A DNA stretch of 61,884 nucleotides, filler included, from an uncultured virus (IMG/VR IMGVR_UViG_2061766007_001639) (Duplodnaviria > Heunggongvirae > Uroviricota > Caudoviricetes). It is 10 parts of one record of this genome, joined end to end, with 100 filler letters (N's around TTAATTAATTAA, not from the genome) between each part and the next. Parts side by side here need not be neighbours in the genome. Positions count along the whole stretch, not along the records: positions 9,664 to 35,231 come from IMGVR_UViG_2061766007_001639; 9 more parts are not named here. The stretch is one strand, 5' to 3'. Position 1 is the first letter of the stretch; every line of letters starts with the position of its first letter. The position numbers were made by a program, and so were the translations under genes. The notes under the pieces were generated by a model. The model was not told the origin of the DNA and did not search any database. It worked only from the letters and a program-made list of their open reading frames with translations. Shown here one piece after another: positions 2,994 through 58,885 of the stretch.

Positions 2994-3444
2994 ATGAAGC
3001 GAGGCTACTTTGGAATCGGCATATTCCANNNNNNNNNNNNNNNNNNNNNNNNNNNNNNNNNNNNNNNNNNNNNNNNNNNNNNNNNNNNNNNGCAAGCGCT
3101 ATCAGACCCAATCCAGCGACACAGTCAAGGCGCCTCGGCATATTCCATTATACCACTACAAGGATTATGACGATTTCTTTCAGCATGTTCCGTATGGCTG
3201 CCCTGTTATTGCCGTAGAGCTCGCGGACAACTCTGTACCACTGGAAACCTTCGTGCATCCGGAACGGTGCATCTACCTGCTGGGCGCGGAAGATAACGGC
3301 ATACCTGAGAGCATACTCACGCGGTGTCAAAACACCGTGCAGTTGATCGGCGAAATCTGCTATAACGTTTCAACTGCTGGGAGCATCGTCATGTATGACC
3401 GGGCTGTGAAGAGGATTGAAAAAAGGGGGGGTGAAGTGGGATGA
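2994..3444 (+). CDS. SpoU/TrmH-family (SPOUT) RNA methyltransferase
   Basis: Starts MKRGYFGIGIF; SPOUT knot motifs YLLGAEDNGI and CYNVSTAGSIVMYDR. Confidence 0.8.
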
Positions 3445-8239: not shown

Positions 8240-8894
8240 ATGAACAAATCAGTATGTTACTGCCTCACCCGCAACATCTACGAACGGGTGTTGCCGTCTA
8301 TCCATTCGTTGACGGCGAATAACAAAATTGACCAGATATACCTGCTCATTGAAGATGACGAGTTTCCGTACCCGTTGCCCGATAACGTTCAGATTATCAA
8401 CGTTATCAATCAGCCATACTTCCGTCCAGACGGCCCCAATTACGCTCAGAAATGGACGTATATGGTGCTCATGAGGGCTGCGTTGACGAAGTACCTTGTC
8501 CGGGAAGACCGTGTCCTCTCGCTCGATGTAGATACCATAATCCGTGGTGATATCTCGGCGCTATGGGGTTACGACCTTTCCGGGTACTACCTCGCAGGCG
8601 TTCCTGAACCGTACTGGACGGAACGGCTCGGACAGACCTACGTCAACATGGGTTCCGTGATGTTTAATCTGGAGAAGTTACGGAACGACGGAATGGATGA
8701 CAAGATTATCCAGGCGCTCAACACCACTCCGTTCAACCTGTGCGAACAGGACTGCATCAATCAGTTCTGCGCTGGACGGATCCTGGAGTTGCCTGGCGAT
8801 TACAACGCAACACGATGGACCACACCGACCGATAACGTCCTGATCAGGCACTACGCCGCAGAGTTCGGTTGGTTCGATACGGAGGATGTGCAGA
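8240..8894 (+). CDS. Glycosyltransferase family 8 (end in gap)
   Basis: DRVLSLDVDTII (DxD), YVNMGSVMFNL, EQDCIN, IRHYA. Confidence 0.85.
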
Positions 8895-8927
8895 NNNNNN
8901 NNNNNNNNNNNNNNNNNNNNNNNNNNN

Positions 8928-9778
8928 GAGGGTTTGAACTGGCAGGTACGTTAAACGGAATAAGACCCGTCTGGTGCTCAGAAGTGGAACCTTTCCCGAT
9001 CCGTGTCGAAGCGGCGCGTTTCCCCGACTGCAAGCAGCTCGGCGACGTGACGAAGATAAACGGCGCGGAGATCGAACCGGTGGATATTATCACGTTCGGG
9101 TCACCGTGTCAGGATCTGTCCGTCGCTGGCAAACANNNNNNNNNNNNNNNNNNNNNNNNNNNNNNNNNNNNNNNNNNNNNGGCTATACGAATTATCAAGG
9201 AGATGCGTAACCATGACGAGTTGGACGGGCGAACAGGTCTCGATATTCGACCTCGATTTGCCGTTTGGGAAAACGTGCCCGGAGCCTTCTCCAGCGGTAA
9301 AGGAAAAGACTTCCAAGCCGTCCTCCAAGCGTTCTGCAACGTTCGAGGGGGGGNNNNNNNNNNNNNNNNNNNNNNNNNNNNNNNNNNNNNNNNNNNNNNN
9401 NNNNNNNNNTGCTGGGTGCATCGTGGGAGACGGCTACAGCGTTGCCTGGCGTGTCTATGACGCTCAATACTGGGGCGTCCCCCAGCGTCGTAAGAGAATC
9501 TACCTTATCGCAGATTTTGCAACCGAACGCGCCGGAGAAATACTATTTAAGTCCGAAAGCATGNNNNNNNNNNNNNNNNNNNNNNNNNNNNNNNNNNNNN
9601 NNNNNNNTTAATTAATTAANNNNNNNNNNNNNNNNNNNNNNNNNNNNNNNNNNNNNNNNNNNNCGGCGCGAACGGCAGTGATAGCGCTGTTTATAAGATG
9701 GCCGGGAACGGCATAGCAATTCCTTGCGCCTATGACGTTCTGAACCACATCGCAGAGGAACTGCGGGGAGAACTTTAA
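8928..9778 (+). CDS. C5-cytosine DNA methyltransferase (fragmented by gaps and a linker)
   Basis: GFELAG, GDV, FGSPCQDLS (motif IV), WENVPG (VI), GVPQRRKRIY (VIII), YKMAGNG (X). Confidence 0.9.
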
Positions 9779-15139: not shown

Positions 15140-15539
15140 CAGAACGTCTCTGAACTGCCGCAACATATCAGACCGTCATCAGACCGCCTAGAACGTGCCT
15201 AGAACGCGTTTCAACCGTGAATGCGATAAGAGATACCAATCGCGCCAGAACCGCTCAGAATGCCGTTTAAATGCGTTTGGTGACGTTCAACGCAATTAAC
15301 GGGAATCCAGACCGCTAGAATCCGTTTTTAGCGTGGGTACGTATAAAGTATCGCCTAGACCGCTACAAACGATTCTAGCCCTCTCAACCCGCACAAGAAG
15401 TCTATGTCGGGAACAAACCAGAGTGATGCATCCAGACGTGACGTCTGCAATCAGAACAAACCGGAGCAACACGTCCGGAACGTAACGTCTCAAACCAGAA
15501 CGTTCCCGCTCTGATCGATGTGAAATGGAGCTGACAATA

Positions 15540-16091
15540 ATGCCAAGATCGAAAAAGCAATCCGCAGAATTGACCGTCCAGTCACCAGAAGAACAGGTCG
15601 TATCCGCGGTAAAGGAAAAACGCCATCGCAATCGTCCCGATCTCGCTAAGTTCGGTTACGAAAATGCTGAACCGGGAGATAACGCCCGTTACCTCAGGAT
15701 GGCTAGAGTCTCNNNNNNNNNNNNNNNNNNNNNNNNNNNNNNNNNNNAGTACTTTGATTTCTGCGAACATAACGACAGAAAGCCTAACATGGTTGGTATG
15801 GCTAACTGGATTGGTATCGATAGAGATACGCTCACATTGTGGAAGAAAGGCGACTACCGAAGCGGAACACACTTCGGAATGATAAAAAAGTATATCGACT
15901 TACTGGAAGAAATGTGGATAGATTACATGCAGAACGGTAAAGTCAATCCTGCAAGTGGGATCTTCCTCGGGAAAAATCTGTTTTCGTACAAAGATACACA
16001 AGACGTTATCCTCACACCTAACAACCCACTAGATAACATGTCCGACGATGAAAGCAGAAAACGTCTAACAGAAGCAATACCAGAAGAATAG
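15540..16091 (+). CDS. terS: Terminase small subunit (DNA-packaging gp3-like)
   Basis: YFDFC...GMANWIGIDRDTL HTH and GIFLGKNLFSYKD C-terminal motif; lies upstream of terL. Confidence 0.7.
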   Translation: MPRSKKQSAELTVQSPEEQVVSAVKEKRHRNRPDLAKFGYENAEPGDNARYLRMARVXXXXXXXXXXXXXYFDFCEHNDRKPNMVGMANWIGIDRDTLTLWKKGDYRSGTHFGMIKKYIDLLEEMWIDYMQNGKVNPASGIFLGKNLFSYKDTQDVILTPNNPLDNMSDDESRKRLTEAIPEE

Positions 16092-16587: not shown

Positions 16588-16619
16588 CAAAAGAAAACCG
16601 CCCCAGAAAGGGCGGTATC
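16588..16619 (-). terminator. Rho-independent terminator closing the minus-strand operon
   Basis: Minus strand ACCGCCC-TTTCTG-GGGCGGT then TTTCTTTT. Confidence 0.8.
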
Positions 16620-16631
16620 GTTGGTTAATCA

Positions 16632-16892
16632 TCAGGCGTCGATGTGGTACGCGCCGTCATCGTTGCGCGTGAAATAGGTAGTCCCATCTGTGGAGGTCAG
16701 CAGACTTTCGATATCGCTGGCATCGTTGATCATATCCAGCGTCCAGCCGTTGCCATAGATTGTGTCGCCGTCTGAAAATTCGTCGGTAGTATCATGCAAC
16801 AGAACGCCGTCTTGAACGGTGGTTTCGTCGGCGTAGGTGAAGCGGATGGCGGTGATCTCAATGTCGCGACCGTTGTAGTTAATGGTTTTCAT
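16632..16892 (-). CDS. Acidic hypothetical protein
   Basis: GAGGAGGG RBS; 86 aa, Asp/Thr-rich. Confidence 0.7.
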   Translation of the reverse strand: MKTINYNGRDIEITAIRFTYADETTVQDGVLLHDTTDEFSDGDTIYGNGWTLDMINDASDIESLLTSTDGTTYFTRNDDGAYHIDA

Positions 16893-16923
16893 TGTGTTTC
16901 CCTCCTCTTTCTGTGTCGTTTGT

Positions 16924-16952
16924 AGTATAGCATTTTGTGCGGATCAGGTCAA
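16924..16952 (-). promoter_or_regulatory. Sigma-A promoter with extended -10
   Basis: Minus strand TTGACC-17 nt-TATACT with TG two bases upstream of -10. Confidence 0.7.
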
Positions 16953-17219
16953 GCAGAACCTGCTGCTCTTGCTGGTTACGGTGTATTTCGCTGCCACATC
17001 AGGGAGGGCGGCTTTCAGGGCTTTGGTGTCGATGCGGCTGGACTCGATCACCTTCCACGATGCTTTCCAGCCGGTGCCGGTCAAGGTCTCTTCGCCCCTA
17101 GTCGCCATCTCCATTTTCAGTTCGTCCTTGATTGCTTCGGCCTCTGCTGTCATGCTCTCAATCTCGATCTGCAGCGCCTTCAGAATGCTTACCTTCTGGT
17201 CTAAATCCTTGATGCTCAT
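16944..17219 (-). CDS. Hypothetical phage coiled-coil protein
   Basis: GAGGAGG RBS; SSRIDTKALK...SSRF pattern. Confidence 0.7.
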   Translation of the reverse strand: MSIKDLDQKVSILKALQIEIESMTAEAEAIKDELKMEMATRGEETLTGTGWKASWKVIESSRIDTKALKAALPDVAAKYTVTSKSSRFCLT

Positions 17220-17270
17220 GGTGTAACCTCCTCTTTATCGTTGAATCAGAACGGGTTAATCAGAACGGTG

Positions 17271-17663
17271 TCAAGCGTACCAGGAAACATAGCAGCGTTT
17301 GGAGTCGCCCTTGCAGAGTGTCGCGTCGGCGTAACTACTGAGCTTGAACGCGGGGCATCCGTTGTTCTTCAGGCGCTTGACGTCACCGTGTTCTTGATCC
17401 CGAACAAACAGACTGTAATCTGCAGCGGGTAGGATGTCATGGGGCAGGGCGTAGGTGTAATTTGCGGCCATGGGTCCGGTTGCCTCTTCCTTGATGATGG
17501 GGGGCAGGATCTCGCGGACTCTGACGGACGACTCGCCCACCAGGGCGACCACCTGGAAGAAGTCAACGTTGGTCTGGTCATATCCCCAGGATGAGCAGAA
17601 GATATCGCCAACGCGGACGCCGTACTTGTTAATGCGGGTGATGTTTGTTTCGTTGTTCTTCAT
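17271..17663 (-). CDS. Conserved hypothetical protein of mobile elements
   Basis: GGGAGG RBS; VGDIFCSSWGYDQTNVDFFQV motif. Confidence 0.75.
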   Translation of the reverse strand: MKNNETNITRINKYGVRVGDIFCSSWGYDQTNVDFFQVVALVGESSVRVREILPPIIKEEATGPMAANYTYALPHDILPAADYSLFVRDQEHGDVKRLKNNGCPAFKLSSYADATLCKGDSKRCYVSWYA

Positions 17664-17695
17664 GGTTTGTAACCTCCCTTTGCTTTGTCGTTTTG

Positions 17696-17758
17696 CGGCT
17701 TCCTACGACGCCCTGTCGGGCGTTTCGGCCCGGTGCCGCCGGGCCATCATCAGGTAGG
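17696..17758 (-). ncRNA. Type I hammerhead ribozyme
   Basis: Minus strand CCUAC-CUGAUGA-U-GGCCCGG(CGGCA)CCGGGCC-GAAA-CGCCC(GACA)GGGCG-UC/GUAGG-AA-GCCG; three perfect stems and intact core. Confidence 0.9.
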
Positions 17759-17762
17759 GTTA

Positions 17763-17918
17763 TCAGAGCATCGCCGCCAGGATCGGCAGCAGAACCAACA
17801 GCAGAACCAGGGCGATCCCTGCTGCGATCTCCGGTAGCAGAACGCGGATCGTCAGCAGAACGTGCCGCAGATCGCTCATCAGAACAGCAGAACGTGAGGC
17901 TTTATAGTTGCGTACCAT
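17763..17918 (-). CDS. Small single-TM protein (51 aa; not in ORF track)
   Basis: GGAGG RBS; MVRNYKASR...IAAGIALVLLLVLLPILAAML. Confidence 0.5.
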   Translation of the reverse strand: MVRNYKASRSAVLMSDLRHVLLTIRVLLPEIAAGIALVLLLVLLPILAAML

Positions 17919-17932
17919 CAGAAGCACCTCCA

Positions 17933-18664
17933 TTATGCGACGCGTTGCCAGTATTGGATAATCGTCCTGTATTGATCATCAGAGTACCGGGGCAACTTCC
18001 ACAGGTCCATGTGCCCGCCGCGCATGTAGTAGGCATACGCCACACCAGCTTCGCGGGGTTCCGGGAACAACTCACATCCGGCCTGGTTTATAATGTTCCT
18101 GCTGTGCTGTGCTGTCGCCGTCCGCAAGCCCACAATGCCGGTAAAGTTGACTTTAATCTCTGTCGGGATCACTGTCGCCAATGGGCATTGGGTACCGGCG
18201 ATAACGTGCACATTCAACGCGCGGCCGATTTGGCATATCCTTTGCAGGATGGGCTTTGCCGTCTTTTTCATGGTTAGCATGATTTCGGCCATTTCATCAA
18301 TGAAGATGTAGATGTGTCCGCCGTCATACTGTGCTAGCTCTCGGCGTTGCAAATCACGCTTCCGCCTGTCGATGATCGCTAGGGCCATGTTCAGCGCGTC
18401 CGTGATTTCGTCGTTTTCGCACGCATATTTCAGCGTGTGGGGCAGGCGCTTATACTTTCCAAACTCGGTGAATTTTGGATCGATGAAGATAAACTGGACT
18501 TTATCCGGGCACTCATGAAGCAGATTGTAGATTATCGAATTCATGGCGCAGGATTTGCCGGAGCCAACTTCACCGGCGATTAGTAGATTGTGCTGGCGGG
18601 CCATGTCGGCGTATAGGCTGTACACCTGGCCACGCGGGGCTGTTACTTTACGTCTAAAAAGCAT
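17933..18664 (-). CDS. Stand-alone FtsK/SpoIIIE-family ATPase domain
   Basis: LLIAGEVGSGKS, FIDPK, IFIDE, GRALNVHVIAGTQ. Confidence 0.85.
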   Translation of the reverse strand: MLFRRKVTAPRGQVYSLYADMARQHNLLIAGEVGSGKSCAMNSIIYNLLHECPDKVQFIFIDPKFTEFGKYKRLPHTLKYACENDEITDALNMALAIIDRRKRDLQRRELAQYDGGHIYIFIDEMAEIMLTMKKTAKPILQRICQIGRALNVHVIAGTQCPLATVIPTEIKVNFTGIVGLRTATAQHSRNIINQAGCELFPEPREAGVAYAYYMRGGHMDLWKLPRYSDDQYRTIIQYWQRVA

Positions 18665-18680
18665 TTGATATCACCCCCAA

Positions 18681-18827
18681 TTAATGCGTGCAAGGCGCGA
18701 CGCTGGAAACAATCATGACTCCGTCATCGTCTTCAATCCATCCATTGACGCGTGCGGCAATTTTCAGCGCCGCTATAAAGCTGGCATGCATTGCCCAAAA
18801 ACCATTGGCGTTGCGGATCGTAAACAT
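18681..18827 (-). CDS. Small hypothetical protein (48 aa; not in ORF track)
   Basis: GGAGG RBS; MFTIRNANGFWAMH... Confidence 0.5.
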   Translation of the reverse strand: MFTIRNANGFWAMHASFIAALKIAARVNGWIEDDDGVMIVSSVAPCTH

Positions 18828-18871
18828 GTTAAAACCTCCGATTTTTTGTCGTCTCTGTCGCTGTCGGCTTG

Positions 18872-19069
18872 TTACGCGTTTATTATGTCGTGATACGTGC
18901 CGATCATTTCTATTTTAATCCCTGCGTCCCTGGCCGCGTCCCTGGCTGCGTCAATTGTGGGATAGCGTCGGCCGTCGTATGGCGTTGTGCCCCATGGAAC
19001 AAGTTTCACAATGCCGCAGAACGTCTTTTTTCCGTCGCCGGTTACCATGATCGCATAGCGTTTTTCCAT
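18872..19069 (-). CDS. Small hypothetical protein
   Basis: AGGAGG RBS; 65 aa. Confidence 0.65.
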   Translation of the reverse strand: MEKRYAIMVTGDGKKTFCGIVKLVPWGTTPYDGRRYPTIDAARDAARDAGIKIEMIGTYHDIINA

Positions 19070-19097
19070 TGCTATTTCCTCCTGTTTCGTTGTTGTT

Positions 19098-19161
19098 GGC
19101 TTGCCTTCATCAGATAACAGGTTGCCGTCCTGCTATGACGGGCCTTGCGGCCCGTTTCGGC
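19098..19161 (-). ncRNA. Type II hammerhead ribozyme
   Basis: Minus strand GCC-GAAA-CGGGCC(GCAA)GGCCCG-UC/AUAGCAGG(ACGGCAA)CCUGUUAU-CUGAUGA-A-GGC-AA-GCC. Confidence 0.88.
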
Positions 19162-19163
19162 TT

Positions 19164-19904
19164 TTAATCGTCCTGTGCTTCAATGAGTGCCTTTAATTCT
19201 TCAAATCGGGCGTCCTGTTCTGCCTTGTATGCTGTGCTGTGTTCAATGAAGAGAACAAATTGTGCTGTCGCGCAATGTTTGCAATTTTCGCAATGCTGAT
19301 TTTTGTCAATGCCACAACGACAAATCCAAACTTTTGCGTCCATTGCCTTGAGTTTGTTATACGCGTTGATGATATAATCGCAATGACCAAAATTATATCC
19401 AATGCCGTCAATAATGGATTTGACAATGTTTCCGTTGGCTGTATCATCGAATAGCGTTTCATACTTCGCTATTTTTGTGTACGTCCAGAAAAGGAATGAC
19501 GGATTTTCTACAACGACTCTATGCCATGTATTGGCGTATTCTTCTGGATTATTCACATTGAAATCGCCGGAAGCATGTATTCTTATTTCCCCGCTTCCGA
19601 TTATTTCAAGCTGTGCGGAAATTGCATTGTAGAAAAATTCGATATCATCATTTACGATTGACATATTCAATTCAAGGGATCGTTTGACACTTGCCATGTT
19701 ATAAAAACCTGTCTGTGCATAGCAGCCCTTGCAATCGCAAATGCATGTTCCCTTTGTTCCGGCCGGCATGCTCCATGTATAAACGCGCTTGCCTGTTTTG
19801 CTATTGCCTTCCTTGAGTAATTCGGCAATCCAATTGCCATGATAAAGGATTTTCCCTGCCTTGTATTCAATGCCATGGAGCTTGTAAACTTCCTTCGCTG
19901 TCAT
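19164..19904 (-). CDS. GP88-family (radical-SAM-like, Cys-rich) protein
   Basis: GNSK, TCxxxCxxCYA, IRIHASGDF, FWTYTK and C-terminal CxxCxxC. Confidence 0.75.
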   Translation of the reverse strand: MTAKEVYKLHGIEYKAGKILYHGNWIAELLKEGNSKTGKRVYTWSMPAGTKGTCICDCKGCYAQTGFYNMASVKRSLELNMSIVNDDIEFFYNAISAQLEIIGSGEIRIHASGDFNVNNPEEYANTWHRVVVENPSFLFWTYTKIAKYETLFDDTANGNIVKSIIDGIGYNFGHCDYIINAYNKLKAMDAKVWICRCGIDKNQHCENCKHCATAQFVLFIEHSTAYKAEQDARFEELKALIEAQDD

Positions 19905-19960
19905 TGCGTCCGCCTTCCTTCCTTTTGTCGTCTGTTTTGTTCCTTCCTTATTACGTGAAT

Positions 19961-19989
19961 AGTATATCATGATTGCGCGTAAATGTCAA
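19961..19989 (-). promoter_or_regulatory. Strong sigma-A promoter of the minus-strand operon
   Basis: Minus strand TTGACA-17 nt-TATACT with extended -10 TG. Confidence 0.85.
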
Positions 19990-20060
19990 TAGCAAATTCA
20001 AGATTGCACGTAATTTTCTTTGATCATTCCTGACTTTTAATCGCTTCGCTGTCGTTTTTC

Positions 20061-20158
20061 CTGCTGGCCTTGCTTCCGGGCGTGACGATGCTTCCGGGCG
20101 CGTGCTGGCCTGCTGGCCTTGCTTCCGGGCGTGACGATGCTTCCGGGCGCGTGCTGGC
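20061..20158. repeat. Perfect 49-bp tandem duplication
   Basis: CTGCTGGCCTTGCTTCCGGGCGTGACGATGCTTCCGGGCGCGTGCTGGC x2. Confidence 0.9.
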
Positions 20159-20361
20159 AAGGCCTGCCCGGATCGGATCGGCAGGAAAAACGCGTCCCCC
20201 GCGGGGAAATAGGCGAAGACGGGGAGGGGGTGATGGAGTCCCGCTACCACCCGCCAAAAATAAAAAGCAAATTTTCTTNNNNNNNNNNNNNNNNNNNNNN
20301 NNNNNNNNNNNNNNNNNNNNCGTAATGGTGGTAATATGTATCACGAAGGGAGGGATTGACG

Positions 20362-21122
20362 ATGAACGTTGCGGCCTACATCAGGGTGTCCACGGACGGG
20401 CAGTGCGGAGACGATAAGTTCGGATTGGACGTTCAGAAGCAGATAATCAACGAGTATTGTGCGAAGAACGGCATGACGATTCTGCGCTGGTACATGGACG
20501 AGGGCGAGTCTGGTGCGAAGGAGCGGCCCGGATTTGACGAGATAGTATACGGAGAGGTAAGCAATCCTCCGACCGAGGCTGTTATCGTTGCGAAGTCTGA
20601 CCGTGTGGCAAGGGACATCAACATCTATTACTACTATAAGATGATGTTGAAGAAGAAGGACATCAAGCTGATTTCGATTGCGGAGGACTTTGGGCAGTTT
20701 GGTGTATTTGCGAACATGCTTGAAGCGTTTACGATGTGTGTCGCGGAAATGGAAAGAGACAACATTACAAAACGCACCAGCAGCGGTCGCAAGGTGAAGG
20801 CATCGCGTGGTGGGTACAGTGGCGGCGNNNNNNNNNNNNNNNNNNNNNNNNCGGTGGTGCGCTTGTAATCAACGAAGACGAGGCAAAGGTCGTTCGGAAG
20901 ATATTTGAACTCCGCAACTCGGGCAGTACGATGCCGGGCATTGTGGAATATCTGAACTCGAACGGATATGCGACTCGTCGTGGTGGAAAGTTTCAGATTA
21001 GTACAATTCAGGGGATTCTGAACAACAGGAAAACATATGAGGGTTATTATCACTACGGAAGCAATGGTGAATGGGTTAAAGGGCAACACGAACCGATCCT
21101 TACCGACGAAGACGAACAGTAA
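20362..21122 (+). CDS. Serine recombinase (resolvase plus recombinase domain; gap-split)
   Basis: AAYIRVSTDGQ, DEGESGA..RPG, KSDRVARD; C-terminal EAKVVRKIF...GQHEPIL. Confidence 0.9.
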
Positions 21123-22468: not shown

Positions 22469-24079
22469 GTGAATGATTACGAACGAATCTTAAAATACAT
22501 CGCTATAAAACCGAACGATCCGCAGGCATATGAGGATGGGTTAGCGATTATATACGAACACACTAAGAATGGCGAGACGGAGTATCACGCGCATAACAAG
22601 GAGTTTCGGGGCAAGATAGCGGCGGNNNNNNNNNNNNNNNNNNNNNNNNNNNNNNNNNNNNNNNNNNNNNNNNNNNNNNNNNNNNNNNNNNNNNNNNNNN
22701 NNNNNNNNNGTTTGGATGCGTATATGCTGTACATCGAATCGAATCGGGATCCAAAGAAACAATTCTATCTGCCACGAAGGGATAAGCTGTTGCCGGTCGT
22801 GAACCTTCTCCAGGCCATGGAGGATGATAAATATGACCTTGTTGGCATCAGTCAACCACCTGGAACGGGTAAGACGGGTACCGCGATATTCTATTTAACG
22901 TGGTTGGCTGGNNNNNNNNNNNNNNNNNNNCCTGACCGGGTCGCATAGTAACGCATTTGTCAGGGGCGTTTACGACGAATGTTTGCGCGTATTTGATGCG
23001 AACGGGGAGTATCTATGGCATGACGTGTTTCCTGGCGTATCGGTATCGAATACAAACGCGAAGGACTGCCGGATTGATCTGGGGAAGCGGAAACGCTTCG
23101 AGACGTTGCAATTCACATCCATCGGAACAGGTAATGCCGGCCTGTACCGTGCATCAAAACTGTTGTATTGCGATGACCTGGTGTCAGGCCTGGAAGTGGC
23201 GTTATCTCGGGAGCGGCTGGATAAGTTGTGGGATACGTACACGACCGACCTGAGGCAGCGTAAAATCGGCGACCATTGCAAGGAACTACACGTCTCAACG
23301 CACTGGAGCGTTCAGGATCCGGTCAGTAGGCTTGAGCGTCAGTATGAAGATGATCCCCGCGCTACCTTCCTTGCCATCCCTGCCTTGGACGAAAACGACG
23401 AGAGCAATTTCGACTACAAATATGGCGTTGGATTCAGCACTCAATTCTACCATGAGCAGCGTGCGATTATGGACGATGTATCATGGCAGGCGCTGTATAT
23501 GAACCANNNNNNNNNNNNNNNNNNNNNNGATATTTCGAGTTGCCGGACAGGGAACCGGATGCGATTCTGTCTGTTTGTGACACGAAAGACCGTGGATCAG
23601 ACTATTGCGTCATGCCGATTGCATACCAATATGGGAATGATTATTACATCGAGGACGTGGTATGCGATAATTCCAACCCGGAAGTGGTAGAAGCGCGGCT
23701 CGTTCAGAAGTGCATACAGCATAAGGTTCAGATGAGTCGATTTGAGAGCAATTCTGCCGGCGGACGAGTTGCTCAGAGCGTGCAGGAACGGATTAAGGCG
23801 AACAGTGGCATCACCAAGATAACAACAAAGTACACCACTCAGAACAAGGAAACGAAGATCATCATGGCTTCACCATTTGTGAAAGAACACTTCCTGTTTA
23901 AGGACGGCAGTGTAATCAAAGATGACAAAGAGTACAGGCGTTTCATGGGTTTCCTTTGTTCGTACTCTATGGCAGGAAAGAATAAATTCGATGATGTCGC
24001 TGATGCGTGCAGCATGTTGGCGGATTATGTGCAAAGCTTTGCAAGAACACAGGTTGAAATCATACAAAGACCGTGGTGA
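22469..24079 (+). CDS. terL: Terminase large subunit (gap-split)
   Basis: SQPPGTGKT Walker A, LYCDDLV Walker B, nuclease DT..RGSDY and FDDVADA. Confidence 0.9.
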
Positions 24080-58271: not shown

Positions 58272-58744
58272 ATGCTTGAATTAAGACCAATCGATCTGAA
58301 CGGTGCCCGTCAGTTTGTCGGCGAGAATCACCGACACAACAAGCCACCGAACGGGCATAAATTCTCCATCGCTTGCTACGACGGCGACAGACTCTGCGGC
58401 GTGGCGATGGTTGGACGGCCCGTTGCAAGGCTACTGGATGACGGCCTGACGGTTGAGGTAACACGCAACTGCACCGATGGCACGTACAACGCCTGTTCGA
58501 TGCTGTACGGCGCGTGTTGCAGGGCCGCTAAGGCACTCGGATACAAGAAGATCATCACGTACACCCTCGAAAGCGAACCCGGGACGTCGCTGAAGGCAAG
58601 CGGATGGACACTGGTCCAAAAACATGTAGGGGGGGCGGATGGGACAGGCCGAACCGGAAGCGGGAACTGGTACAGTATACGCTGCTTGGTGATGAAATCA
58701 AGTATTCGACCGAGAAGAAAGTGCGGTGGGAAAAGATGTTATGA
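58272..58744 (+). CDS. XF1762-family (Mom-like GNAT) protein, frameshifted at a G7 tract
   Basis: HRHNKP, GRPVARLLDDG, NACSMLYGA, ITYTLESEPGTSLKASGW. Confidence 0.7.
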
Positions 58745-58885
58745 AGCGCGATTTATCTGGAAGAAAATATACGGTTTATAAACACACGACCCCTGACGGA
58801 AAGTCATATATCGGAATGACGTCACAGCCGCTCGAAGTAAGATATGGGTCTGGCGGATACAGATGGAAATACTTTGATGGCGGTG
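58741..58885 (+). CDS. GIY-YIG endonuclease (fragment)
   Basis: YTVYKHTTPDGKSYIGMT. Confidence 0.75.

Follow-up and report, generated by a model that had tools for sequence, protein, structure and literature searches.

What purpose do two self-cleaving ribozymes serve between the genes of a single phage operon? This question is raised by a minus-strand unit in a 61,884-nt stretch of DNA from an uncultured member of Caudoviricetes, referred to here as the window. A reading of the sequence alone had described the unit as a promoter, eight genes, a terminator, and two hammerhead ribozymes in the sense orientation, and our analysis confirmed this description almost to the base.

Organization of the eight-gene unit

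Each of the eight ORFs, all located on the minus strand, is preceded by a Shine-Dalgarno (GGAGG-like) site, and the genes are bracketed by a single strong promoter and a single terminator (Table 1). Between these co-oriented genes, no terminator-like site followed by a clean T run was found on the minus strand. The two ribozymes, both sense-oriented inside this one transcription unit, occupy its two longest intergenic gaps. With an internal promoter-like site before it, the last (86-aa) gene may be expressed without the long transcript, which weakens the single-transcript picture for this gene. The start of the GP88 gene was placed at 19904, behind AAGGAAGG, and not at an upstream ATG at 19970, which overlaps the promoter. 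For the membrane ORF, whose GGAGG site sits within the end of the ATPase gene, a start at 17918 (51 aa) is more likely than one at 17933.

A terS-like gene and a C-terminal part of terL flank the unit, in agreement with the sequence-only reading, but a serine recombinase gene, on which that reading was silent, also lies there. The recombinase appears as two overlapping frames around a masked run. Homologs of the terS-like gene are found beside the cassette in related loci, being convergent and downstream in 17 of the 25 loci with a terS match. In addition, GP88 and the FtsK-like gene are on one strand in 23 GP88 loci. The same layout thus recurs in relatives, indicating a feature of the lineage and not a recent insertion, although the unit had been called inserted. 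We read the eight-gene unit as an accessory operon conserved in a lineage of temperate gut phages, and this reading, together with the cutting of its transcript proposed below, seems to us fairly probable. The early or host-takeover role previously suggested for the operon has nothing in the sequence behind it and is not supported.

Table 1. Features of the operon and its flanks (positions in the window).
Feature	Coordinates	Strand	Remarks
sigma-70/sigma-A type promoter	19961-19989	-	TTGACA-17 nt-TGaTATACT; 11/12 matches; TG present
GP88-family gene, 246 aa	19164-19904	-	PF17338 4.6e-15; 960 homologs
type II hammerhead ribozyme (hammerhead 1)	19091-19165	-	predicted cut 19137/19136; loop I / 3' tail pseudoknot GGC/GCC
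65-aa ORF	18872-19069	-	no family; AGGAGG 8 nt upstream
48-aa ORF	18681-18827	-	no family; GGAGG upstream
stand-alone FtsK/SpoIIIE-like P-loop ATPase, 243 aa	17933-18664	-	PF01580 3.5e-24; phrog_1358 1.5e-44; 115 homologs
51-aa membrane ORF	17763-17918	-	hydrophobic C-terminal stretch; no family
type I hammerhead ribozyme (hammerhead 2)	17693-17761	-	predicted cut 17707/17706; loop II / 3' tail pseudoknot CGGC/GCCG
130-aa ORF	17271-17663	-	phrog_37844, unknown function; 305 relatives in viral contigs
91-aa ORF	16944-17219	-	phrog_1956; resembles C-terminal part of phrog_434; homologs in L001, L149, L089, and L086
internal promoter-like site	16924-16952	-	TTGACC-17-TGcTATACT; 10/12, TG present; precedes last gene
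86-aa ORF	16632-16892	-	no family
intrinsic terminator	16588-16616	-	hairpin 16616-16597, 8-bp stem, then T run
terS-like gene (context)	15525-16091	+	GP3_package 26.9 bits, 5.7e-6; below 29.4 Pfam cut-off; convergent with unit
serine recombinase (context)	20356-21122	+	Resolvase 6.8e-26, Recombinase 1.7e-14, phrog_95 integrase; divergent from unit
terL C-terminal part (context)	22983-24079		phrog_38

Two hammerhead ribozymes of different type

Both elements possess the full conserved core, CUGAUGA ... GAAA ... UC, as judged by the positions listed in the Methods of PMC3088659 (C3 U4 G5 A6 N7 G8 A9 / G12 A13 A14 / A15.1-U16.1 / H17). One extra residue follows A9 in each, A in hammerhead 1 and U in hammerhead 2; these are the two residues described as tolerated at this place in the CChMVd viroid hammerhead (PMC3705267). 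Helices I/II/III are of 8/3/7 bp in hammerhead 1 and 5/7/6 bp in hammerhead 2, with zero mismatches, and the 3' tails are complementary to the relevant loops. The minimum free energy (MFE) and centroid folds of both elements are the hammerhead structure; the MFE fold is a three-way junction of -26.0 kcal/mol (z -3.4) for hammerhead 1 and -32.3 kcal/mol (z -3.1) for hammerhead 2, and none of 200 shuffles was as good in either case.

A comparison with the Rfam hammerhead models had been proposed along with the sequence-only reading. Hammerhead 1 matched Hammerhead_II (RF02276) over its full length (model positions 1–66) at 19162-19095 with 35.0 bits (E 1.5e-4, 4 kb searched), 2 bits short of the gathering threshold (37 bits), at which a search of the whole window gave no match; two relatives, L013 (37.1) and L425 (45.9), exceed this threshold. 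Hammerhead 1 shares the open stem II, the hairpin stems I and III, and the tail-loop I pairing with the RF02276 type, but differs from typical members in its 3-bp stem II, the extra A, and the score below threshold. Its pseudoknot has 3 clear pairs, whereas most type II hammerheads described in PMC3088659 have 4 or more. Hammerhead 2 gave no match to Rfam models, including those of type I/III, at E up to 10; evidently, these models do not cover its phage type I family.

Family models were built from other phage contigs, without the window's sequences. Hammerhead 1 scored 71.3 bits (E 2.3e-19) against the type II model R3, and hammerhead 2 scored 77.6 bits (E 8.6e-24) against the type I model R1 (37 phage sequences), each as the sole strong match in the window; part of these scores is circular, because the model sequences were fetched by patterns from the window's own cores. 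Covariation was found in all helices of the type II family including the pseudoknot (94.7% of cells paired versus 66.6% in shuffles) and in the type I family (94.2% versus 71.1%; 16 of the 21 pairs changed on both sides). The pseudoknot helix itself covaries: 82% and 80% of cells are paired in types I and II, respectively, and both partners vary in each of the 4 pairs. L092 retains an ortholog of hammerhead 1 at the corresponding position, in which three base pairs differ in both partners and one G-U pair has become G-C. A descriptor scan of 1.06 Mb on both strands yielded six matches with scores of 17–18, namely the window's two elements and those of L092, L157, L159, and L160, while the best score of the shuffled control was 14. 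The cores, helices, folds, family models, and compensatory changes in L092 led us to conclude that both motifs are genuine hammerheads, as had been claimed.

Ribozymes upstream of the ATPase gene in related loci

The 40 loci with an FtsK-like gene (L401–L440) contain 24 ribozyme matches in 21 loci, all of which are in the sense orientation and upstream of the ATPase ORF, with none downstream. These ribozymes belong to the pistol, twister-P1, hammerhead II, and hammerhead I classes. Those located between GP88 and the ATPase gene are twister-P1 (L086–L089), hammerhead II (L092), or hammerhead I (L274). The comparison shows a conserved position upstream of the ATPase gene that is occupied by changing classes of ribozyme.

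Most related loci have no ribozyme, or none that was detected: this holds for 18 of 24 retrieved loci in which GP88 and the ATPase gene share a strand, and for 19 of the 40 FtsK-like loci. The operon can therefore work without ribozymes. The loci so counted lack phylogenetic independence, and some contigs are represented twice, once in each of two collections. None of the relatives examined has a ribozyme downstream of the ATPase gene like hammerhead 2, and no hammerhead adjoins the relatives of the 130-aa gene; among 80 loci, a single one contains a hammerhead, at a distance of about 2 kb.

These observations raise the possibility, which we advance tentatively, that the stand-alone FtsK-like ATPase gene of temperate gut phages has, across a large clade of them, repeatedly recruited unrelated ribozymes to one position, in sense orientation and immediately 5' of the gene or of a short cargo block preceding it. 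If this were true, selection would want the cut itself, that is, a separate ATPase message with a 5'-OH end, and the cut would perhaps serve to adjust the level of this DNA translocase, potentially a harmful one, separately from the levels of its neighbors. The question of what bacterial ribozymes are for would then have a specified partner gene and a small system that can be cloned and tested.

Proposed cutting of the transcript and its relation to known systems

We consider it probable that the ribozymes cut one operon transcript into three independent mRNAs. The strong promoter would drive a transcript of ~3.3 kb, in which both hammerheads would fold and cut themselves as the RNA is made. 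The predicted cut sites agree with those given by the sequence-only reading, as does the length of the middle fragment, and the three segments that it derived are supported by the sequence and the comparison: GP88 (about 0.8 kb); the 65-aa, 48-aa, FtsK-like ATPase, and membrane peptides (1430 nt); and the 130-, 91-, and 86-aa products (about 1.1 kb). Each cut would leave the upstream piece with a stable ribozyme hairpin followed by a terminal 2',3'-cyclic phosphate, and the downstream piece with a 5'-OH. The piece after hammerhead 1 would open with the 8-bp stem I hairpin, and that after hammerhead 2 with a short open leader carrying a ribosome-binding site. Such end structures may allow the pieces to decay and be translated independently; differential segment stability would correspond to the standard published hypothesis. 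Cleavage probably takes place in the host, and selection may act on the uncoupling of the ATPase block from its neighbors.

Other explanations were weighed against this proposal. Each ribozyme starts 2–4 nt past the upstream stop codon (hammerhead 1 at 19162, 2 nt past that of GP88 at 19166-19164; hammerhead 2 at 17758, 4 nt past that of the membrane ORF at 17765-17763), and the twisters in L086, L089, and L091 start about 20–40 nt after the GP88 stop. A terminating ribosome could thus cover part of the ribozyme, so that cleavage would report upstream translation and tune the downstream block, and regulated cleavage of phage hammerheads was raised by Perreault et al. (PMC3088659). Genes are, however, normally packed closely in phage genomes, which requires no regulatory interpretation, the ribozyme is 300–850 nt from the upstream gene in L087, L088, and L090, and no ligand or sensor element is visible; we assign this coupling a small but appreciable probability. 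The ribozymes could also mark the boundaries of exchangeable gene cassettes, travelling with small cargo genes and persisting by insulating a newly inserted gene from its context, not through any need of this operon for the cut. In line with this idea, the hammerhead II of L092 lies directly before the ATPase gene, from which that of the window is separated by two additional small ORFs; L371 has the order hammerhead II, unrelated 67-aa ORF, ATPase gene; and the neighbors of 119 family members sort into 155 protein groups, mostly singletons and none of them a cassette protein. That 24 of 24 matches lie in sense and upstream of a single gene family nevertheless points to a link with the ATPase gene and not to random borders, and no exchange mechanism is evident, which makes boundary marking rather improbable.

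Inactive relics or chance look-alikes, for one or both motifs, would agree with the unreached Rfam thresholds, the extra core-adjacent nucleotides, and the lack of ribozymes in most relatives, but are very unlikely in view of the intact core positions, the mismatch-free helices, the available pseudoknot partners, the shuffled controls reaching 14 against 18, the compensatory changes in the L092 ortholog, and family-model E-values on the order of 1e-19 or lower. Extremely unlikely is the earlier suggestion that a host RtcB-type ligase joins the ends of the middle fragment into a 1430-nt circular mRNA. RtcB acts on 5'-OH and 2',3'-cyclic phosphate ends, and the end chemistry fits; the idea is chemically possible but unsupported. 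The ends derive from different hammerhead permutations with unrelated stems, so that no ribozyme would be rebuilt for self-ligation, whereas viroid and retrozyme circular RNAs have the same ribozyme copy on both flanks. In addition, no RNA ligase family turned up in the scan of ORFs from the window, of which 15% is masked, the ATPase gene of relatives commonly has one ribozyme upstream of it, which gives no excisable segment, and Perreault et al. (PMC3088659) report that circular or spliced products were not detected in similar arrangements.

Cutting into three mRNAs, the preferred reading, would place the locus within a kind of arrangement already known, the ribozyme-split gut-phage operon, and the locus reveals no new type of element. 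It is a clean, complete example, with promoter, three segments, terminator, two hammerhead permutations, and intact predicted tertiary contacts. Engineered ribozyme insulators such as RiboJ remove the RNA that precedes them, so that the transcript begins with a 5'-OH leader headed by a hairpin. The operon ribozymes are likewise predicted to be self-cleaving and are placed before a gene, but RiboJ is engineered, and we infer the natural equivalence. In prophages, hammerheads flank genes or short gene blocks, and processing of long transcripts was proposed (Perreault et al. 2011, PMC3088659); cleavage of polycistronic constructs of ~2 kb was demonstrated in vitro for tandem elements from C. scindens, A. 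caulinodans, and A. tumefaciens, and one of the sets was also active in E. coli (PMC3088659). In D. vulgaris, cleavage is documented for three type II hammerheads located close to phage-like genes (PMC8782182). The present operon resembles the clusters of Perreault et al. (PMC3088659) in its several sense-oriented hammerheads of mixed type between phage genes, and differs from them in its gene set (GP88 and an FtsK-like ATPase) and its full promoter-to-terminator unit.

The purpose of the thousands of bacterial and phage self-cleaving ribozymes was described as still open in a 2019 review. Roth 2014 and Weinberg 2015 noted unrelated ribozyme classes "within 6 kb of certain gene classes", for a reason left undetermined (as described in PMC5737381, PMC4604424, and PMC6765202). 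Similarly, pistol, twister-P1, and hammerhead I/II interchange upstream of one ATPase family, and what our comparison appears to add is the FtsK-like ATPase gene as a fixed partner of the ribozymes. Since the class changes while the position is retained, this association offers a concrete handle on such gene-class associations and may permit a direct test on a 3.4-kb cassette.

Minus-strand unit and its two hammerheads

The sequence-only reading had described a minus-strand unit with a promoter, eight genes and a terminator, and such a unit was indeed found, located between the terS-like gene and the recombinase gene. The window is not a single contig but ten pieces, with nine N44-TTAATTAATTAA-N44 spacers joining them (six-frame stop; at 1533, 9564, 35232, 41933, 43428, 44686, 47424, 51842, and 58886), and gene order across the joints is therefore without meaning; the ribozyme operon sits in the piece 9664-35231. 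Masked bases amount to 9424 (15%) in 125 runs, and the N-terminal part of the terminase would lie in heavily masked sequence.

Features of the ribozyme operon and of the piece that carries it
Feature	Position	Strand	Basis or make-up
DUF927 replication gene	in piece 9664-35231	+	
terS-like gene	15525-16091	+	GP3_package, 26.9 bits, under its cut-off
Terminator	16616-16597	-	
Element 2	17761-17693	-	CCUAC-CUGAUGA-U-(GGCCCGG CGGCA CCGGGCC)-GAAA-(CGCCC GACA GGGCG)-UC/-GUAGG-AAGCCG (slash, predicted cut)
Element 1	19165-19091	-	GCC-GAAA-(CGGGCC GCAA GGCCCG)-UC/-(AUAGCAGG ACGGCAA CCUGUUAU)-CUGAUGA-A-GGC-AAGCC (slash, predicted cut)
Promoter	19989-19961	-	TTGACA, 17 nt, TG-n-TATACT; 11/12 matches
Serine recombinase	20356-21122	+	
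Large terminase, C-terminal part	22983-24079	+	
HNH endonuclease, SPP1-type portal, head genes	in piece 9664-35231	+	

A GGAGG-like site lies ahead of each of the eight ORFs. The family is known for two of them, GP88 (PF17338, 4.6e-15) and a stand-alone FtsK/SpoIIIE-like ATPase of 243 aa (PF01580, 3.5e-24; phrog_1358, 1.5e-44), and in PADLOC and NCBIfam searches of the eight proteins only the ATPase was matched, in each case to generic ATPases. A perfect 49-nt tandem duplication (20060-20157) lies a short way upstream of the cassette promoter, in the gap that separates it from the divergent serine recombinase; every copy contains GCTTCCGGGCG twice, and 12-nt inverted repeats (20053-20064 and 20181-20192) stand on either side. 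The duplication may serve as an array of operators or belong to the site of the recombinase.

Element 1, located 3' of the GP88 gene, reads as a type II hammerhead with an open stem II and hairpin stems I and III, and its 3'-tail GCC could form a pseudoknot with the complementary GGC of loop I. Element 2, which follows the ATPase gene and a small membrane ORF, is a type I hammerhead whose tail GCCG is complementary to CGGC in loop II. The predicted cuts, 19137/19136 and 17707/17706, coincide exactly with those of the sequence-only reading and would release a middle fragment of 1430 nt, in line with its value of about 1.43 kb. The Rfam hammerhead models, proposed there as a check on both elements, matched element 1 (Hammerhead_II, 35.0 bits, E 1.5e-4 on 4 kb), but under the gathering score of 37, and gave no match to element 2 at E values up to 10. 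For both elements, the minimum free energy and centroid structures showed the canonical junction, and none of 200 shuffles was as good. When both strands of 1.06 Mb of sequence were scanned with a descriptor, six matches scored 17-18 (elements 1 and 2 and the related loci L092, L157, L159, and L160), whereas shuffled sequence reached at most 14. After A9, element 1 carries an additional A and element 2 an additional U; in the CChMVd hammerhead, A at this place is tolerated, U increases the rate, and C or G is harmful (PMC3705267).

Eight metatranscriptome contigs from two bovine-gut libraries are identical to parts of the region, four from one run (16681-16902, 17757-17977, 18781-18987, and 18973-19124) and four from the other (16749-16900, 17002-17178, 18691-18907, and 19860-20032); none bridges a cleavage site and one covers the predicted promoter, in assemblies that show neither ends nor strand and may include DNA carry-over.

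The phage is probably temperate, since a tyrosine integrase and an HTH/ImmA-like pair occur elsewhere in the window. With blastn, the region had no match in 50,697 phage records, and a single-sequence ATPase scan of viral contigs found no close relative. Possible nucleic-acid modification genes were seen at 8240-9460, 58272-58781, and 3010-3444; candidates in the window are an ORF matching both glycosyltransferase family 8 and C-5 DNA methylase, a weak Mom-family match (under cut-off), and a SpoU-type methylase.

Sequence families of the two ribozymes

A search of viral contigs with the pattern of element 2's core fetched at least 121 stretches, and among the matches listed at least 95 distinct type I sequences formed a stem I no shorter than 4 bp. 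In an alignment of 37 of these hammerheads, 94.2% of the cells were paired, compared with 71.1% after shuffling and at most 44% with slid partners, and both sides had changed in 16 of 21 pairs, all four pseudoknot pairs among them. The same procedure with element 1 yielded 34 stretches, 20 of which were aligned (94.7% paired versus 66.6% shuffled; pseudoknot helix, 80%). The covariance model R1, built from the 37-sequence type I alignment without the window, scored element 2 at 77.6 bits (E 8.6e-24) as its sole window match, and the type II model scored element 1 at 71.3 bits (E 2.3e-19), both scores being partly circular because the fetching patterns, which left stems, loops, and tails free, fixed the core letters.

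Type I hammerheads with U after A9 and a pseudoknot between loop II and the 3' tail are abundant in viral contigs (L246-L366, at least 121 stretches). Rfam seems to cover the type I hammerheads of phages incompletely. Pairs of ribozymes that share a strand and are separated by 0.4-1.6 kb also occur in other phage contigs (L286/L287, L319/L320, L393/L394, L237, L415, L418, and L419): the two are near-identical hammerheads, both type I or both type II, or they are a pistol and, about 400 nt further on, a twister immediately ahead of the ATPase gene.

Ribozymes at GP88 and ATPase loci

There were 960 GP88 homologues, mostly metagenomic, and 80 viral, 5 genomic, and 80 metagenomic loci were fetched; the species-genome collection contained only five GP88 relatives, all distant. 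In 23 loci GP88 is followed by an FtsK-like gene in the same orientation. Of the 25 loci having a terS match, 17 have the terS homologue downstream and on the other strand, and in three loci a recombinase homologue lies upstream. As judged from gene order, the cassette layout is a lineage feature.

The ribozymes are sporadic in the GP88 loci, yet concentrated in the closest relatives. Nine relatives have a GP88 identity of 71% or higher and include the sequence downstream; six of them carry twister-P1 (E 1.5e-8 to 1.7e-5, under Rfam's high cut-off of 67.2), one carries a type II hammerhead, and two have none detected. The hammerhead, in L092 (GP88 identity, 72%), is element 1 at the same site, directly after the GP88 stop, with three pairs changed on both sides, one G-U replaced by G-C, and an identical loop I and tail. 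Wherever GP88, the ATPase, and a ribozyme were all present in a fetched locus, the ribozyme lay between the two genes: a twister in L086-L089, a type II hammerhead in L092, a type I member of the element 2 family in L274, and the window itself. L371 lacks GP88 and has a type II hammerhead, an unrelated 67-aa ORF, and the ATPase gene in that order. At the gathering threshold, Rfam found Hammerhead_II (L013), twister-P5 (L032), two tRNAs, and nothing more in 33 viral GP88 loci, and the full Rfam at E values up to 0.1 found nothing in 11 more distant syntenic loci.

Adjacency of GP88 and a hammerhead was rejected as a rule: a ribozyme was detected in just 13 of 113 GP88 loci (L001-L033 and L086-L165, duplicates included), and its side varies, being downstream of GP88 or, as with the type I hammerheads about 35 nt before the gene in L157, L159, and L160, upstream. 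Element 2 and the 130-aa gene that follows it were likewise discarded as a conserved pair, with hammerheads in one of 80 loci (L237), about 2 kb off. The immediate neighbours of 119 hammerhead-family matches included neither GP88 nor any cassette protein. A hairpin 3' of GP88 in L098 failed to align as a twister. In L088, tandem repeats of about 63 nt (1545-1750) directly follow the GP88 gene, upstream of the twister.

An alignment of 24 ATPase homologues was used to fetch 80 viral loci with 900-nt flanks, and at least 257 FtsK-like loci were confirmed in viral contigs. All Rfam models at E values up to 0.01 gave 23 matches in 20 of the first 40 loci (pistol, 12; twister-P1, 9; Hammerhead_II, 2); since the loci do not represent independent lineages, such figures are counts and not numbers of events. 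R1 detected one more ribozyme, a type I hammerhead in L435. All 24 ribozymes lie on the strand of the ATPase gene and upstream of it; in these 40 loci, Rfam and R1 found none downstream or antisense. The frequency drops with distance from the query, from 15 of 20 loci to 6 of the following 20, and our own three models, a scan outside which pistol and other classes fell, found zero matches in the last 40 loci.

No relative of GP88 with a solved structure was significant by sequence, and Foldseek found nothing at E values up to 0.001. A wide structural search peaked at Z 5.9 with no match at Z 8, an atlas search returned GP88 clusters only, and the AlphaFold model (pLDDT 83) has an alpha/beta core. 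Radical SAM enzymes made up 11 of 50 weak structural matches (Z 4.1-5.7). C54-x-C56-x-C58-xx-C61 is invariant among the homologues, and a C-terminal H-C-xx-C-xx-C is also kept; the cysteine run includes CX3CX2C, a spacing characteristic of radical SAM enzymes. GP88 is possibly an Fe-S or radical SAM-like enzyme.

Proposed processing of the transcript and comparison with known arrangements

The varying class, fixed position, and strict orientation of the ribozymes argue that the cut itself was selected, and not a given RNA shape or ligand. We consider it fairly likely that predicted cleavage processes the polycistronic transcript into units of different stability or translation. The products would be capped by ribozyme hairpins. 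At the 3' end of the GP88 mRNA one would expect the 7-bp hairpin of stem III and a cyclic phosphate. The middle mRNA would have a 5'-OH and the 8-bp hairpin of stem I at its start and two GC-rich hairpins at its end, and the last mRNA would begin with an open leader of 43 nt bearing its own ribosome-binding site. In bacterial mRNA decay, terminal hairpins impede exonucleases, and a 5'-OH impedes 5'-end-dependent entry; we infer that this protection extends to the present host.

Less probable rival readings are that cleavage is conditional and coupled to translation, that the ribozymes insulate the borders of the cassette, and that they are relics. Circularisation of the middle fragment, put forward in the sequence-only reading, is the weakest of the alternatives: the two ends come from different hammerhead permutations, no ligase family was seen among the window ORFs scanned, relatives commonly carry a single upstream ribozyme, and Perreault et al. 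found no circles (PMC3088659).

A literature search on self-cleaving RNA and FtsK gave, among the papers covered, nothing relevant by title and start of abstract, and Weinberg 2015 may already list an association with FtsK-like or GP88 genes. Processing of phage transcripts by ribozymes has already been published as a hypothesis (PMC3088659 and the review PMC6765202). The present locus is a well-formed example of an arrangement already described: hammerheads flanking prophage gene blocks were reported in 2011 (PMC3088659), and twister, pistol, and hatchet were discovered through gene neighbourhoods common to unrelated ribozyme classes (PMC5737381, PMC4604424, and PMC6765202).
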